In this document: piece by piece, positions 726 through 57,520 of the stretch
Layout of the letters: each line of letters starts with the position of its first letter
Position numbering within the stretch: the stretch's first letter is position 1
Source: an uncultured Candidatus Saccharibacteria bacterium
GTDB taxonomy: Bacteria > Patescibacteriota > Saccharimonadia > Saccharimonadales > EFPC-124
Reading direction: 5' to 3'
Length of the DNA: 64,000 bases
Assembly: GCA_964550035.1 (NCBI GenBank)
Contig: CAZJVU010000003.1
Location: 65,383-129,382 of the forward strand
Made by a program: the position numbers and the translations under genes
Notes under the pieces: generated by a model
Seen by the model: only the letters and a program-made list of their open reading frames with translations
Told to the model about the DNA's origin: nothing
Databases searched by the model: none

Positions 726-731
726 CAGGGT

Positions 732-985
732 GGCTGACCGACGCCGCTCATCCCCTTCTCGCCCTCGACTGTGTCGAAGCCCGGCGACGAAGGAACGGTA
801 GTTCCTGAGACCCGAGCAGGAGAGGGTGAGAATGGGGATGAAAAGGCGTCTGAGGATTCTGCGTGGACCGGCTTTTCACCCATGTCCCCATTCCCTCCTG
901 CTTGGGTCTCAGAGCTAACGCTCTTCGCCGCCAGGCTTCGATGACAGCCCCGGAAGAGGACATGGGTGAGCGCCGGCTGGCGTAG
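732..985 (-). repeat. Palindromic (long-hairpin) repeat element, copy A
   Basis: ~254 nt imperfect palindrome. Arm pairs include ctgagacccaagcaggaggg/ccctctcctgctcgggtctcag and gaatgggga/tccccattc. A second copy lies at 56366-56575 in inverse orientation. Confidence 0.8.
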
Positions 986-1019
986 AGTCACCAACTATAT
1001 AACTAAGGAGATCATTAAA

Positions 1020-4971: not shown

Positions 4972-6017
4972 AGCTCTTCTTTCTCCTCCTCTGGCTTCGA
5001 AGCCAGAGGAACGCGAACCGTGAAGGTCGAACCTTTGTCGACTTTACTTGTCACTTCGATGGCGCCTTTGTGGAGGTCAACGATCTTCTTGGCGATGGAC
5101 AGGCCGAGACCGTAGCCATGAACTTTTGTACCTTTGGTGCGGGAGCTGTCCGCGCGGTAGAGACGGTCGAAGATGTGTGGCAAATCGTCTGGCTTGATAC
5201 CGCAGCCTTGGTCGGCCACGGCGATGTAGGCGTTGCCACCTTTGACGCTGGAACTCAGGGTGATCTGCGACTTTTCGGGACTATACTTGATGGCGTTATC
5301 GAGCAGAATCGCAAAGAGTTGGACAAGCCCGTCTTTACTGCCTAGCACAGCCAGTCCTTCAGTCTGGTCGTCGATGGCGATCTTGTGCTGTTTGGCAACT
5401 TTGTCGGTACGCTCTATGGCGCCCTTCAAAACTTGCTTTGTTTCTACGCGATGCGGCTCAAAGGTGTCTTTGTCTTGATTGGCGAGCATGAGGAGGCCAT
5501 TGCTGAGCTCCTGGAGTTTGTTGACCTCCTCGAGGTTGCTTTCCAGGAGTTCACGCGCCTCAGCAATTGATAAGTTCTTATCACGCAGTGAGACTTCGAT
5601 CTCGGTTTGCATTGCCGTCAGCGGCGTCCGGAGCTCGTGCGAGGCATCACCCGTGAACCGCGCTTGCGCCTCCATGGCTTGTTCCAGCGGGCGCAGTGTG
5701 CGGCGCGCCATATAGAAACTCGCCAGGCCGCCCACTACCAATACACCGACATTCGCAAGCGTCAGGTTCGCGATCAGCCGCTGCTGACCCGAGCTAATCT
5801 CGCGGTCACGCAACCGGTCGAGGTCCAGTGGCGAAGGCGTAAAGCCAAACGAATTATAGTATTGCTGGCGAATCGCTGAGCGCTGGTGGTCATAGGCTGC
5901 GTCCAGTGTCTCAGCCGATGAATTGTACAGCACAAAGCTAAACGCCAAGCTCAGCCCCATCACCAGCGCCAAGTACCACGCCGTCAATTTAATTGTTGCA
6001 GACTGAAACATTCTCAC
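4968..6017 (-). CDS. Sensor histidine kinase
   Basis: H-box SHELRTPLTAM; N/G boxes DQGCGI...GYGLGLSIAKKIV; two N-terminal TM segments; 4-nt overlap with the response regulator. Confidence 0.92.
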   Translation of the reverse strand: MRMFQSATIKLTAWYLALVMGLSLAFSFVLYNSSAETLDAAYDHQRSAIRQQYYNSFGFTPSPLDLDRLRDREISSGQQRLIANLTLANVGVLVVGGLASFYMARRTLRPLEQAMEAQARFTGDASHELRTPLTAMQTEIEVSLRDKNLSIAEARELLESNLEEVNKLQELSNGLLMLANQDKDTFEPHRVETKQVLKGAIERTDKVAKQHKIAIDDQTEGLAVLGSKDGLVQLFAILLDNAIKYSPEKSQITLSSSVKGGNAYIAVADQGCGIKPDDLPHIFDRLYRADSSRTKGTKVHGYGLGLSIAKKIVDLHKGAIEVTSKVDKGSTFTVRVPLASKPEEEKEEL

Positions 6018-6691
6018 CCATCTAGTTTATAACCAAATCCTCGCACTGTCTTGAGCAGTTGCGGCTCGCCGCGGAACGGGCGATCGATCTTGTTGCGAAG
6101 ATACCCGATGTACACCTCGACTGTGTTAAATAAAACGTCGGCGTCGTAGCTCCAGACATGCTGGATGATCATCTCTTTGCTGAGGGTGCGGCCTTTGTTG
6201 CGCATGAGGTATTCCAGCAGCGCGAATTCACGCTGTGACAAGTCGATTGTTTTATCTGCGCGACGGACTTCATAGCTTGTGGTGTCGAGCGTTAGGTCAC
6301 CTACCTCAAGCTTCATGCCGAGTGAGTCTTGCGGTCGGCGAAGAAGCGCACGGACGCGGGCCAAGAGCTCTTCGAATGCGAATGGCTTGACTAGGTAGTC
6401 GTCGGCGCCAGCGTCCAACCCAGCGACTCGATCGCGGACAGCGCCTTTGGCGGTTAGCATAAGTATCGGTGTGTGGTTGCCTTCTCCCCTGAGTTCTTTG
6501 CAGACACCGACGCCGTCCATCTCGCCCGGGAGCATGCGGTCGAGGATTATCATGTCATAGTCGTCGGCGCGGGCGCTGGCCAATCCGTCATCGGCATCAT
6601 ACACGACATCGACAGCAAAGGATTCTTGCTGGAGGCCTTTCTTGATTGCGTTCGCGATTTTGTGCTCGTCTTCTACTACTAGGATCTTCAT
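6014..6691 (-). CDS. OmpR-family response regulator
   Basis: Receiver domain (MKILVVEDE...DMIILD...LTAK) plus winged-helix C-terminus (LSQREFALLEYL...TVRGFGYKL). Confidence 0.93.
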   Translation of the reverse strand: MKILVVEDEHKIANAIKKGLQQESFAVDVVYDADDGLASARADDYDMIILDRMLPGEMDGVGVCKELRGEGNHTPILMLTAKGAVRDRVAGLDAGADDYLVKPFAFEELLARVRALLRRPQDSLGMKLEVGDLTLDTTSYEVRRADKTIDLSQREFALLEYLMRNKGRTLSKEMIIQHVWSYDADVLFNTVEVYIGYLRNKIDRPFRGEPQLLKTVRGFGYKLDG

Positions 6692-27533: not shown

Positions 27534-27608
27534 TGGCGAGTGGCCAAATGGTAAGGCACTAGTTTCTGGCACTAGGGATTGAAGGTTCGAGTCCTTCCTC
27601 GCCAGCCA
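27534..27608 (+). tRNA. tRNA-Gln (anticodon CTG)
   Basis: Manual cloverleaf: acceptor tggcgag/ctcgcca, D arm gcc/ggc, anticodon stem ctagt/actag with loop ttCTGgc, T arm gaagg-ttcgagt-ccttc, encoded CCA; TATAAT at ~27515. Confidence 0.9.
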
Positions 27609-53978: not shown

Positions 53979-54746
53979 ATGCGTGCAATTTGGAATGGAT
54001 CAATCAGCTTCGGACTCGTCAGTATTCCCGTCAGACTTTACAGTGGTAGCAATTCGCGGGCCGGTATCGACCTCGATATGCTTCACAAGGAAGACCACTC
54101 GCCGATTCGCTTTGCGCGGATTTGCCGCAAGGACGGCGAGGAAGTGCCTTGGGACGACATCGTGAAGGGGTACGAATACCGCGACGGCGACTACATCGTG
54201 CTGAGCCAGAAGGAACTCGACGAGCTCGATGCCAAGAAATCCCAGACCATCGATATCCTCCAATTCGTCAATGAAGACGACATCGACATCCGCTACTTCG
54301 AAAAACCATACTACCTCGAGTCCGACAAGGGCGGTGACAAAGCTTACGCGCTCCTGCGTGCAGCATTGAAGAAATCCGGCAAGCTAGCCCTCGCCCGATT
54401 TGCCATGCACGAGCACGCGCACATTGCGGTTATTAAACCCGTTGGCCGCGCGCTGGTGCTGAACCAAATGCGTTATCCTTCTGACCTTCGTGAGCCGGGC
54501 GAGCTGCACTTGCCAACCGAGAAAGAACTCTCTGAGAAGGAAATCGACATGGCGCTCAAACTCGTCAAGCAAGAGACCAAACCATTCATTCCCGAAGACC
54601 TGCGCGACACCTACACCGAAGAGCTCGAGGAACTCATCAAGGACAAAGCTAAAGGCAAGAAGCTCCCTAAAGGTCATGAATCCAAGGGCGCTTCCGGCAA
54701 CGCCAAAGACCTGATGAGCGCGCTCAAAGCCAGTTTAAAGGAGTAG
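53979..54746 (+). CDS. ku: Ku protein (NHEJ DNA end-binding)
   Basis: MRAIWNGSISFGLVSIPVRLYS...; Lys-rich C-terminal tail. Confidence 0.93.
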   Translation: MRAIWNGSISFGLVSIPVRLYSGSNSRAGIDLDMLHKEDHSPIRFARICRKDGEEVPWDDIVKGYEYRDGDYIVLSQKELDELDAKKSQTIDILQFVNEDDIDIRYFEKPYYLESDKGGDKAYALLRAALKKSGKLALARFAMHEHAHIAVIKPVGRALVLNQMRYPSDLREPGELHLPTEKELSEKEIDMALKLVKQETKPFIPEDLRDTYTEELEELIKDKAKGKKLPKGHESKGASGNAKDLMSALKASLKE

Positions 54747-54752
54747 CTGCCT

Positions 54753-56774
54753 ATGGGCTTGCGGGAGTATTTCCGGAAACGCAGTTTTAGCGAGACGCCT
54801 GAGCCAGAGGGCAACAGGAAGCCGGCGCGAGGCCGCGCTACTCCTCGGGCACAAGACGGTCGTCGGAGCAACACGACCTCGCGCCGCCATACGTTAAAAT
54901 TCGTTGTTCAGGAGCACCACGCCACCGCGCTGCACTACGATTTCCGCCTCGAGATGGACGGCGTTCTCAAAAGCTGGGCCGCGCCGAAGGGTCCGAGCAT
55001 GAATCCGCACGATCACCACCTGGCCATCCAGACCGAAGATCACCCTTACGAGTATCGCAACTTCGAAGGCGTCATCCCCGAAGGGAACTACGGCGCGGGT
55101 AACGTCATCATCTGGGATGAAGGCACGTACGAACCACGTGACCCGCAGGGCGACGAGAAGTCACTCTTGCGCGACCTGAAGAAAGGTCACGTCACATTTG
55201 TAATGCATGGCAAGAAACTCCAGGGCGAGTTTGCGCTCATCCGTATGCCGAATGCCAAGGAAGACGACGCCTGGCTTCTCATAAAGAAAGGCGACGAATA
55301 CGCCAACAGCACCGACGTCACCAAAGAAGACGAGTCTGTTCGCTCGCACCGCCATGTCGACGACCTCGGTGCGCACGGTAAGTTGCCTGATCTCAGCGAG
55401 TTTCCCAAAGTCCGCCAGCCCTGGACGGTCACGCCCATGCTTTGCACGCTCGTGGATGAGCCGTTTGACCGCGACGGGTGGATTTTTGAGATCAAATGGG
55501 ATGGCTACCGCGCGATCGGCACCAAGCATGGCGCCGACACGCAGCTTTACTCGCGCAATCAACTCGACTTCCGCGAGAGGTTTCCGCCCGTCGTCGAGGC
55601 GCTGCGCGAGATCAAGCACGACGTGATCCTCGATGGCGAAGTTGTTGTCGTGGATGATGAAGGCCGCGCACATTTTGAATGGCTACAAGGCTGGAATAAG
55701 GTCCCGCACGGCACACTCCAATATCACATCTTTGATATCCTCTGGTGTGACGGTCACGATGTGCGCAACTTGCCGCTCGTACGTCGCAAGGCTTTGCTCA
55801 GTGCCATCCTCCCGAAGAGCTCGGTGCTGCGCTACAGCGACCACGTCACTGGCAAAGGGCTCAAACTCTTCCACGAAATGCAGCGCCGCGGGCTGGAGGG
55901 CATGGTCGCAAAGCGCGCTGACAGCACATATCGTGAGAATGTCCGCGGTGGCGACTGGCTGAAAGTAAAGACACACATGCGCCAAGAGGTTGTGATCGGC
56001 GGCTACACTGAGCCACGTGGTGGGCGTAAATATCTCGGCTCGCTGCTCGTGGGCACATACGAGAAAGGTGAGCTGATATACCGTGGTCACTCCGGCGGCG
56101 GCATTGGCGATGAGCAACGCAAACAATTACAGGCAAAGCTCGCGCGGCTGGAGCGCAAGACGTCGCCGTTCAGCACCGAGCCAAAGCCGAACGCGCCGGT
56201 TCACTGGGTGAAGCCTGAGCTGGTATGTGAGATGGAATTTAGTGAATGGACGAGTGAGGGATCTATGAGGCATCCAGAGTTTAAGGGTTTGCGACCGGAT
56301 AAGAAGCCGGAAGATGTACACCGCGAGAAGTCAAAGTCCGTCAGCCACGCTGAGCATAGTCAGACCCACGCCAGCCAGCGCTCGTCTATGTCCTCTTCCC
56401 GACGGTATCGAAGCCTGGCGGCGAGGAGCGATAGCTCCGAGACCCAAGCCGGAGGGAACGGGGACATAGACGAAAAGCTGGTCCACGCAGAATCCTCAGA
56501 CGCCTCTTCGCCCCATTCTCCACCCCTCCTAAGACAGTCGGGATCGAAGAAGGGGGCGAGCGGCGTCAGCAGGCCGAATCGAAAAGTAAGGGACAAAAAG
56601 AAGGGGCGGACCGACCAACAGGACCCCAGTCCTTTAGTCTCCCGTTCGAACCAACTCACCTCGACAAAGTCTTCTTCCCCAAACACAAATACACCAAAGG
56701 CGACCTCTTCGAATACTACACCGCCGCCGCCGAGTACATCCTCCCCTACCTCAAGGACCGCCCACTCTCCATGA
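54753..56774 (+). CDS. ligD: LigD, phosphoesterase plus ATP-dependent ligase domains. The 3' third reads through a repeat insertion and out of frame into the polymerase region
   Basis: PE: FVVQEHHATALHYDFRLE..LKSWAAPKGPS. Ligase: EIKWDGYRA (KxDG), ...HPEFKGLRPDK. After ~56360 the sequence is low-complexity. Confidence 0.85.
   Translation: MGLREYFRKRSFSETPEPEGNRKPARGRATPRAQDGRRSNTTSRRHTLKFVVQEHHATALHYDFRLEMDGVLKSWAAPKGPSMNPHDHHLAIQTEDHPYEYRNFEGVIPEGNYGAGNVIIWDEGTYEPRDPQGDEKSLLRDLKKGHVTFVMHGKKLQGEFALIRMPNAKEDDAWLLIKKGDEYANSTDVTKEDESVRSHRHVDDLGAHGKLPDLSEFPKVRQPWTVTPMLCTLVDEPFDRDGWIFEIKWDGYRAIGTKHGADTQLYSRNQLDFRERFPPVVEALREIKHDVILDGEVVVVDDEGRAHFEWLQGWNKVPHGTLQYHIFDILWCDGHDVRNLPLVRRKALLSAILPKSSVLRYSDHVTGKGLKLFHEMQRRGLEGMVAKRADSTYRENVRGGDWLKVKTHMRQEVVIGGYTEPRGGRKYLGSLLVGTYEKGELIYRGHSGGGIGDEQRKQLQAKLARLERKTSPFSTEPKPNAPVHWVKPELVCEMEFSEWTSEGSMRHPEFKGLRPDKKPEDVHREKSKSVSHAEHSQTHASQRSSMSSSRRYRSLAARSDSSETQAGGNGDIDEKLVHAESSDASSPHSPPLLRQSGSKKGASGVSRPNRKVRDKKKGRTDQQDPSPLVSRSNQLTSTKSSSPNTNTPKATSSNTTPPPPSTSSPTSRTAHSP
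56366..56575 (+). repeat. Palindromic repeat element, copy B (210 nt, in frame within ligD)
   Basis: Aligns to the reverse complement of 732-985 with a ~45-nt deletion in one arm; 70 codons with no stop in the ligD frame. Confidence 0.8.
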
Positions 56775-57520
56775 ACCGCATGCCCAACGGCATCAAAGGC
56801 CCAAGCTTCTTCCAGAAAAACAACGAGCACCTGCCCGATTGGGTCCCGAGCGCTGACATCTGGAGCGACAGCAACAACGCCGACCTGCATTGGATTGTCG
56901 GCGACAAGCTCGACACGCTCCTCTACCTCGTACAGCTTGGTTCGATCGAAATCAACCCCTGGAACTCACGCGTCGGTCAACTCGACAGACCCGACTGGAT
57001 CGTCATCGACCTTGACCCCGAAGGCGTCACATTCAACGACGTCATCAAGGTGGCCAAAACAGTCCACGAAGTCACCAGCGAATGGGACATCCCAGCCTAC
57101 CCCAAGACTTCCGGCAAGACCGGCATTCACATCTTCATCCCCATGGGCGCGAAATACACCTACGAACAAGCCAAGAACCTCGCCCACCTCATAGCCCTTG
57201 AGGTCAACAAGCGCCAGCCCAAGCTTACCAGCGTCGAGCGTAACCCAGAGAAGCGCAAACACCGTATCTATCTCGACTTCCTCCAAAACCGCGAGGGTCA
57301 AACCCTCGCCGCGCCTTACTCTGTCCGCCCAACCGAGGAAGCCAGCGTCTCGATGCCGCTCCACTGGCGCGAAGTGAAGCTCGGCCTCAGCCCCATGGAC
57401 TTCACCATCAAGAACGCCCTTGCCCGCCTCAAGCGCACCGGCGACTTATGGGAGCCAGTCATGGGTAAGGGCATCGACCTCGCAAAAGTCCTGAAAAAAA
57501 TTGAATCTTCCAGCAAGTAA
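56435..57520 (+). CDS. ligD: LigD polymerase/primase domain reading frame (-1 relative to upstream ligD ORF)
   Basis: Frame open from 56435. It translates ...FEPTHLDKVFFPKHKYTKGDLFEYY...RPLSMNRMPNGIKGPSFFQKN...IVIDLDP... No ATG/GTG/TTG before ATG 56771. Confidence 0.75.
   Translation, partial: LRDPSRRERGHRRKAGPRRILRRLFAPFSTPPKTVGIEEGGERRQQAESKSKGQKEGADRPTGPQSFSLPFEPTHLDKVFFPKHKYTKGDLFEYYTAAAEYILPYLKDRPLSMNRMPNGIKGPSFFQKNNEHLPDWVPSADIWSDSNNADLHWIVGDKLDTLLYLVQLGSIEINPWNSRVGQLDRPDWIVIDLDPEGVTFNDVIKVAKTVHEVTSEWDIPAYPKTSGKTGIHIFIPMGAKYTYEQAKNLAHLIALEVNKRQPKLTSVERNPEKRKHRIYLDFLQNREGQTLAAPYSVRPTEEASVSMPLHWREVKLGLSPMDFTIKNALARLKRTGDLWEPVMGKGIDLAKVLKKIESSSK

Follow-up and report, generated by a model that had tools for sequence, protein, structure and literature searches.

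A probable palindromic repeat element in the ligase-polymerase linker of LigD from Saccharimonadales

What occupies the linker between the ligase and polymerase domains of a ligD gene from an uncultured Saccharimonadales bacterium, and is the gene read in one piece across it? The gene lies in a 64-kb stretch of Saccharimonadales DNA (the window; all coordinates follow its numbering, and L### and P#### denote related loci that were fetched and homologous proteins, respectively). A first-pass annotation, made from the letters of the window, had described positions 56366-56575 as one copy (copy B) of a repeat, inserted as 70 in-frame codons between the ligase (Lig) and polymerase (Pol) domains, with a second copy (copy A) elsewhere in the window, and had likened it to the Rickettsia palindromic elements (RPEs). 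In our assessment, the ligD segment is probably a small palindromic repeat, non-coding and present as a partly decayed copy, lodged in the disordered Lig-Pol linker. The alignments described below indicate that the element, or pieces of it, occupies the same ligD site throughout a clade of soil and rhizosphere Saccharimonadales, whose members translate it in frame as 20-100 additional linker residues with Pol kept in frame. Copy A, judging from orthologous spacers, is an independent intergenic insertion.

The relationship between the two copies was recovered in three ways. BLAST aligned copy B (query 56251-56700) with copy A (818-983, minus strand) at 85.5% identity over 166 nt (E=6e-48), an inverted-repeat search of the window returned 119-nt arms with 86% complementarity, and a profile search with nhmmer placed the copies at 56368-56573 (E=9e-63) and 733-983, with no third copy in the window. 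Furthermore, two conserved sub-strings were restricted to the copy A and copy B loci in the window, and shuffles predict none. These searches agree with the repeat as first described, with its second copy at ~732-983 on the minus strand, except that the left edge of copy B lies nearer 56355-56360 than 56366. Several other elements of that description also held: the segment starts ~50 nt past the end of the Pfam ligase oligonucleotide-binding (OB) domain (residue 517, ~56303), its 210 nt contain no stop codon in the ligase frame, the peptide strings quoted from it are correct, and copy A is open in the equivalent frame (a 92-aa open reading frame, ORF, at 716-994 on the minus strand). The stop-free run of 70 codons, although real, is weak evidence of an in-frame insertion: ~15% of composition-matched shuffles are open as well, and so is one antisense frame.

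The left ~108 nt of copies A and B served to build a covariance model, which gave 126.7 bits for the left module of copy B and matched copy A twice, with 130.5 bits and, on the opposite strand (741-848 plus), with 75.6 bits. Because the model matches copy A on both strands, the full element is a head-to-head dimer of the ~108-nt module. It measures ~255-262 nt, and its sole ORF has no Pfam or homolog match. Copy A is predicted to form one long hairpin of -73.2 kcal/mol (z=-6.65, DNA fold). The right-hand hairpin of copy B, hereafter R, reaches -33.4 kcal/mol (z=-3.5, RNA fold), and R hairpins overall, those of orthologs included, range from -29 to -42.5 kcal/mol (z -3.3 to -6.1). We looked for a promoter or a terminator within copy A and found none. 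Against Rfam 15, the element stayed below every gathering score and matched only plant and animal miRNA hairpin models, far below threshold.

Copy A fills the gap that separates a small gene (ATG at 1019) from an ABC-transporter permease gene (27-725). This spacer is 293 nt long in the window versus 74 nt (L177) and 12 nt (L178) in two relatives, where it is empty; their permeases are 88% and 85% identical to that of the window, and their gene order is the same. Since the orthologous spacers are empty, copy A is an insertion. Several genes of L177 (JGI 3300066132; 4987-6332, 1692-2661) and L178 (286-1469) are split (G6PD into three, TerC into two, the permease into two), suggesting that these assemblies are rich in indels and that their gene lengths are untrustworthy; the spacer comparison is unaffected. 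The layout of copy A bears on the view that no mobile element is involved at all, the ligD linker being a hypervariable low-complexity spacer and copy A a stray duplication of it. Linker length and content do vary widely, even between LigDs that are 93-98% identical, and the sequence is found at ligD and one other locus only, both as that view would have it. However, copy A is a complete, symmetric inverted dimer and every ligD copy is partial, so that a direction from ligD to copy A is unlikely; copy A occupies a spacer that is empty in relatives; and the conserved, covarying secondary structure described below is unlike that of an unconstrained low-complexity linker. We consider a mere spacer duplication very unlikely.

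Most of the 120 LigD homologs have 25-30 residues between the motifs 'GLRPDK' and 'LPFEPTHLDK'. Linkers of 45-131 aa occur in the closest clade (80-89% identity outside the linker), at least 13 LigDs of which carry peptides encoded by the element (P0001, P0002, P0004, P0005, P0006, P0009, P0010, P0011, P0012, P0013, P0017, P0020 and P0021). The linker pieces of orthologs are 79-88% identical at the DNA level to copy A or B; third codon positions of the flanking ligD sequence are only 42-59% identical. The remnants fall into two types. The first is hairpin R, with ~43 nt deleted from the right module, in L001, L003, L174, L180 and the window; the second is an undeleted right module in the orientation of copy A, in L002, L175 and L179 (covariance model, minus strand, 40-43 bits). 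All ortholog genes with remnants are intact, with the element pieces in frame and indels sometimes compensated. Thus, the expectation that aligned orthologs would lack the 70 residues was borne out for distant LigDs, with their 25-30-aa linkers, but not for the orthologs from other metagenomes that hold pieces of varying length at the same site. Because at least 13 orthologs carry such pieces, the homologous linker that the first-pass annotation had named as speaking against an insertion is partly present.

Remnant types do not follow LigD similarity. P0004 and P0005 differ in type although their identity outside the linker is 92%, and a minimal linker is found in P0007 despite 98% identity to P0003. 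For the window, the closest relative is P0122/L176, with an intact 939-aa gene, the linker of which is largely different and has only the motifs TCAGACGCCTCTTCGG and GAGCGGCGTCAG in common with that of the window. These comparisons indicate that the linker site is remodelled fast and repeatedly by deletion, recombination or re-insertion, and does not hold one private 70-codon insertion. A single ancient insertion followed by purely vertical decay was rejected as the full account, since the remnant types are intermixed among close relatives; vertical decay alone is also disfavoured by the element DNA being far less diverged than synonymous sites.

Copy B itself is not uniform. Over positions 56368-56505, identity to copy A is 86%, with 2 gap columns; identity to L003, L174 and L002 does not exceed 59% over alignable columns (L001 and L175 overlap in 22 columns only). 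This left module has no clear counterpart in orthologous ligD linkers, L003 containing a diverged remnant only. Over positions 56506-56575, where a large gap separates the two copies, identity to copy A is only 71%, but it reaches 77-80% with L003 and L174. By alignment, copy B is therefore a mosaic of an A-like left module and a right hairpin common to orthologs.

Between the left modules of A and B, 36 base pairs were predicted by RNAalifold, 5 of them compensatory and 0 broken; one paired change is TCACCCATGTCC/GGACATGGGTGA in A versus TCGTCTATGTCC/GGACATAGACGA in B. RNAalifold also returned 5 compensatory pairs among the R hairpins from different genomes, though copy A is misaligned there; at the variable position of the R stem, direct inspection shows copy A with T-A, L003 with A-T, L001 with G-C and the window with (C)-G. 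Such covariation could mean selection on the nucleic-acid fold or palindrome-templated correction. Under selection, the hairpins would constitute a structured RNA or DNA element, lodged in the linker-coding region and with a second copy between genes, that might modulate translation or decay between the Lig and Pol portions of the mRNA or be recognised by a hairpin-specific recombinase. Besides the compensatory pairs, this proposal can draw on a small stem that reads GGAAC/GTTCC in copy A and GGAGC/GCTCC in L002, L175 and L179, on the much better conservation of the element DNA than of the surrounding synonymous sites, and on the great stability of the folds. However, LigDs that are 92-98% identical (P0007, P0018, P0003) lack the hairpins or have other pieces, so that no piece is essential; template switching at quasi-palindromes makes paired changes without selection; the element has no Rfam match beyond generic long-hairpin noise; and the sample is small, with 2-5 sequences per helix. 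We regard a function of this kind as unlikely. The more specific proposition, that selection for their fold has maintained the ~108-nt module and the 69-nt hairpin within the coding part of ligD throughout the Saccharimonadales clade, the linker doubling as a functional nucleic-acid element, strikes us as quite improbable. If true, it would make the linker a cis-regulator that uncouples ligase and polymerase expression, or the preferred landing and recombination site of an undescribed hairpin-recognising mobile system of the Candidate Phyla Radiation (CPR), and it would explain the repeated remodelling of one site with pieces of the same element.

The second part of the question, whether ligD is read in one piece, has a different answer in the window than in its relatives. 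The domain order is phosphoesterase (PE)-Lig-Pol, and all three domain types were found (Pfam PF13298, PF01068, PF04679 and PF21686), with LigD_N at 53-164, DNA_ligase_A_M at 228-406 and DNA_ligase_A_C at 425-517 of the first ORF (ORF1). The three domains are not in one uninterrupted frame: PE-Lig is in frame 0 and Pol in frame 2. The insertion is thus not in frame as sequenced, contrary to the initial description; Pol lies in the -1 frame, and one nucleotide is missing at 56510/56511. In the aligned linkers, the window reads CTTCG-CCCC versus CTTCGGCCCC in L001, CTTCGACCCC in L003, CTTCGACACC in L174 and TTTCATCCCC in copy A. The pairing partner of the gap site reads GGGGGCGA (56552-56559), and since this stem partner is complementary, the lost base would be a C (C5 to C4). 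Adding one C after 56510 yields a single LigD ORF of 922 aa, the linker of which ('...SSDASSPPFSTPPKTVGIEEGGERRQQ...' / '...SSDASSPPFSTPPKTVGIEEGGERRQQAESKSKGQKEGADRPTGPQSFSLPFEPTHLDK') matches those of orthologs such as P0011 and P0012.

The break leaves Pol without its beginning. The sole start codon in the frame-2 open stretch, ATG at 56771, opens an N-terminally truncated second ORF (ORF2) of 249 aa. The Pfam LigD_Prim-Pol profile is matched over 1-254 from position 56693 and only over 27-254 from this ATG, and the structures of PolDom in the PDB align from 'THLDK', 40 residues upstream of it. Asn13, Lys16 and Lys26 form a 5'-phosphate pocket that is critical for synapsis (PMC8656161); the equivalent residues fall in the stretch upstream of the ATG and are absent from ORF2. 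As sequenced, ligD is predicted to encode PE-Lig with a junk tail, plus a piece of Pol whose start lies 40 residues inside the structural domain. The Pol frame is intact over ~300 codons, with all motifs, full Pfam coverage and no further decay. The TGA stop of ORF1 overlaps the ATG of ORF2 as ATGA (56771-56774), with AAGGA 13 nt upstream, and if the frameshift is real, termination-reinitiation at ATGA could yield the truncated Pol fragment.

The remainder of the window appears undamaged by indels: long ORFs tile ~92% of the 64 kb, and a Pfam scan of 10 suspect window ORFs found no split domains. Because the rest of the window and the Pol frame show no such damage, the frameshift must have arisen very recently or else reflect an erroneous consensus within a GC-rich hairpin. 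We lean towards a very recent inactivating or gene-splitting mutation; a consensus error in the hairpin is a serious contender, somewhat short of an even chance. The latter forms part of a broader alternative, in which LigD is made as a single PE-Lig-Pol polypeptide with a clean, tolerated, RPE-like insertion in frame, and an error of assembly or consensus, calling C5 as C4, produced the apparent frameshift. The ease with which a single C restores a full-length ORF with an ortholog-like linker, the Pol frame without long-term decay, the intact gene of the closest relative and the position of the site in a homopolymer within a stable hairpin all speak for this alternative. It fares less well with the lack of any other sign of indel error in the window, where the tested domains are complete, with the two separate proteins of the deposited annotation, and with the failure to find further in-frame host genes, which leaves RPE-like family behaviour unsupported. 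We rate it as possible, on the doubtful side. In either case the annotation calls for caution: ORF1 is identical to the NCBI-derived protein P0027 and ORF2 to P0121, and these deposited proteins (673 aa and 249 aa) are most simply one LigD broken by one base inside a hairpin.

The two frames could also be joined during translation. In this scenario, a programmed -1 ribosomal frameshift past the deletion, for example at C_AAA_AAG (56594-56600), would give both PE-Lig and PE-Lig-Pol isoforms. Three features favour it: frame 2 stays open from 56432 onward; ahead of the Pol domain, frame 0 contains a slippery motif of the A_AAG type (56594-56600); and the stop of ORF1 and the start of ORF2 overlap. 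However, there is no stimulatory structure, the 90 nt after this motif, the only slippery-like one, folding at z=-0.68; the motif is ordinary coding sequence (GQKEG) in the unshifted gene of relatives; and the heptamer is non-canonical, with C rather than A in the first position. We rejected programmed frameshifting on the first two grounds and give it almost no credence.

Several results weigh against the view that copy B derives from a palindromic repeat element. Only two loci are known: no other copy was found in ~2 Mb of fetched loci, and the covariance model found none outside ligD in 583 kb of related Saccharimonadales DNA. An exact search with a loop 20-mer gave 0 matches in 185,579 genomes (GTDB representatives), and the 90 exact matches of an arm 18-mer in JGI metagenome contigs were all due to chance (18-25 nt). 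Because these scans gave no true copy, a multi-copy mobile family is not demonstrated. No target-site duplication was recognised: no direct repeat was seen where either copy joins its flanks, and relatives' spacers have diverged too far for the empty site to be defined exactly. No cognate transposase was found, in a window that was not systematically screened for transposases. Furthermore, R-hairpin and A-like linker types are intermixed among close LigDs, which needs recombination or recurrent insertion. The ends of the element are alike (GGTGRCT..GCGCTCA versus TGAGCGGCGTC..). The copy A peptide had 0 matches among 5.8 billion proteins; its sole match among 1.84 billion protein representatives, P0243, was dismissed as a spurious tandem-repeat protein. 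The survey of further copies that had been proposed at the outset thus returned ligD and one intergenic copy, with no other host protein among those representatives, and the likeness to RPEs stands for a palindromic repeat in an interdomain linker, with remnants translated in frame in relatives, but not for many copies in many genes.

[quoted passage not shown] The element would spread, or be exchanged, as DNA, through transposition in trans or through conversion of one copy by another. This would account for the 86% identity of copy B's left module to A even though orthologous linkers lack this module. The ligD copy of the window may have been exchanged with, or refreshed from, an A-like copy, and it carries the loss of one base that breaks the fusion as sequenced. 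The linker presumably tolerates the element because the reading frame, and not the peptide, is selected, and the hairpins would persist either because their fold is selected or because palindrome-templated repair restores them.

The element behaves like a MITE or an RPE, but the searches did not reveal a large RPE-like family. RPEs measure ~150 bp and comprise some ten families; their copies, numbering dozens, are inserted into many unrelated genes within a single genome (Ogata et al. 2000, summarised in PMC10969869). The comparison with RPEs is by description. Like them, the element is a small palindromic, hairpin-forming, non-coding repeat in a protein gene, read in frame in relatives at a permissive interdomain linker. 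Unlike RPEs, which occupy several unrelated genes in many copies, it is present as two copies in 64 kb, in ligD as the only gene and at one intergenic site; the host belongs to Saccharimonadales, and the host frame, kept in every intact ortholog, is lost in the window copy, which is tied to the 1-nt frameshift. Bacterial MITEs with intragenic, ORF-fusing copies include the enterobacterial repetitive intergenic consensus (ERIC), Correia/CREE and cyanobacterial MITEs (review PMC10969869). The element shares with MITEs its short length, lack of coding capacity, hairpin formed by the whole element, presence of both intergenic and intragenic copies, and presence/absence polymorphism, seen in the copy A spacer and in the ligD linkers of LigDs that are 92-98% identical. 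It differs from them in having no recognisable target-site duplication, sharp terminal inverted repeats or parent insertion sequence (IS) or transposase; two copies are known, from 64 kb. Repetitive extragenic palindromes (REPs) and bacterial interspersed mosaic elements (BIMEs) similarly consist of hairpin units in alternating orientation, as in the head-to-head copy A, with pairing kept by compensatory changes. However, REPs are 20-40 nt long, extragenic, present in hundreds of copies and linked to REP-associated tyrosine transposases (RAYTs), whereas the module here is branched, ~108 nt long and intragenic in one copy.

The separation of PE-Lig from Pol, in turn, invites comparison with naturally split enzymes of non-homologous end joining (NHEJ). 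Stand-alone Lig, Pol and PE NHEJ proteins occur in some bacteria and archaea (PMC8656161). As sequenced, the window resembles these in that PE-Lig and Pol are in separate ORFs with an ATGA overlap, and differs in that the Pol ORF begins 40 residues inside its domain, without the 5'-phosphate pocket. From its sequence, the window's ligD looks less like an evolved split than like a fusion that has been broken.

Table 1. Positions of ligD, its neighbour and the repeat copies in the window
Feature	Coordinates	Strand	Description
ku	53979..54746	+	ORF; adjoins ligD on the upstream side (NHEJ pair)
ligD ORF1 (673 aa)	54753..56774	+	PE and ATP-dependent ligase domains, element-bearing linker, out-of-frame tail over the start of Pol
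Copy B	56368..56575	+	In the Lig-Pol linker; homology to A may reach ~56357 leftward
Copy B left module (~108 nt structured)	56375..56480	+	Outer stem 56382-56400 with 56455-56473
Right hairpin R (69-70 nt)	56499..56567	+	Right-module remnant with ~43-nt deletion; also in L001, L003, L174, L180
C4 run	56511..56514	+	One nucleotide short versus all homologs; source of the -1 frame change between ligase and Pol
Frame-2 open stretch	56432..57520	+	Remaining linker and complete LigD primase-polymerase domain
Native linker after the element	56577..56640	+	Frame 2: ESKSKGQKEGADRPTGPQSFSLP; conserved in L176, L004, L005, P0016
Copy A, full-length, inverted dimer	730..991	-	Modules 741-848 (+) and 869-976 (-), 20 nt between

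The features of the locus are collected in Table 1. The window's LigD is 78-89% identical to other Saccharimonadales LigDs, and the gene order, ku, ligD, a cupredoxin gene and cyoABCD, is common to relatives, with the upstream gene of L001, L002, L174, L176 and L180 assigned to the Pfam Ku family. An antisense ORF of 176 aa (56360-56890, minus strand) covers the element in full, together with the first part of Pol, and is probably a by-product of the GC-rich sequence. A tRNA gene at 27534-27605 was the only Rfam match in the window at gathering score.

Other small repeats were observed in LigD. A second palindromic insertion in the window's ligD, at 54823-54886, has 22-nt arms with 82% complementarity and adds ~18 residues ('...TPRAQDGRRSNTTSRR...') to the disordered N-terminal tail. 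Orthologs share it only patchily: P0001, P0006, P0009 and P0122 have it, and P0003, P0004, P0005 and P0007 do not. In the Lig-Pol linker, a small hairpin (L174 4071-4112; linkers of P0003, L004 and P0025) is formed by a 'GVAVGGAAPAF' segment that pairs with a conserved 'K(R/E)GG(P/A)' segment (AAAAGAAGGGGCGGAC). P0003 and P0007, 98% identical outside the linker, differ by a 29-aa indel at this hairpin, and the window retains the right arm only, at 56589-56615. More distant Saccharimonadales LigDs (P0039, P0060, P0073, P0074 and P0076) share another recurring linker motif, 'PP.VEPE.RAFETTGSKVGSPRVNA', and the linkers of P0040 and P0100 contain 'EP.RDGRD.RLG..DYARE', which we suspect to be the DNA of the 'PP.VEPE.' motif in another reading frame. 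These motifs suggest that further repeat elements may use the Lig-Pol linker site.

In the literature, by a search that was not exhaustive, we found no description of a palindromic MITE/RPE-like element in Saccharimonadales. If the reading preferred here is right, the ligD segment and copy A would document such a repeat in this lineage of the CPR, and would illustrate that the interdomain linker of a repair enzyme can take up such an element and go on to turn it over rapidly, with the frame preserved. The paired changes within a coding linker would, in addition, provide a small natural test of selection on nucleic-acid structure versus palindrome-templated mutation.

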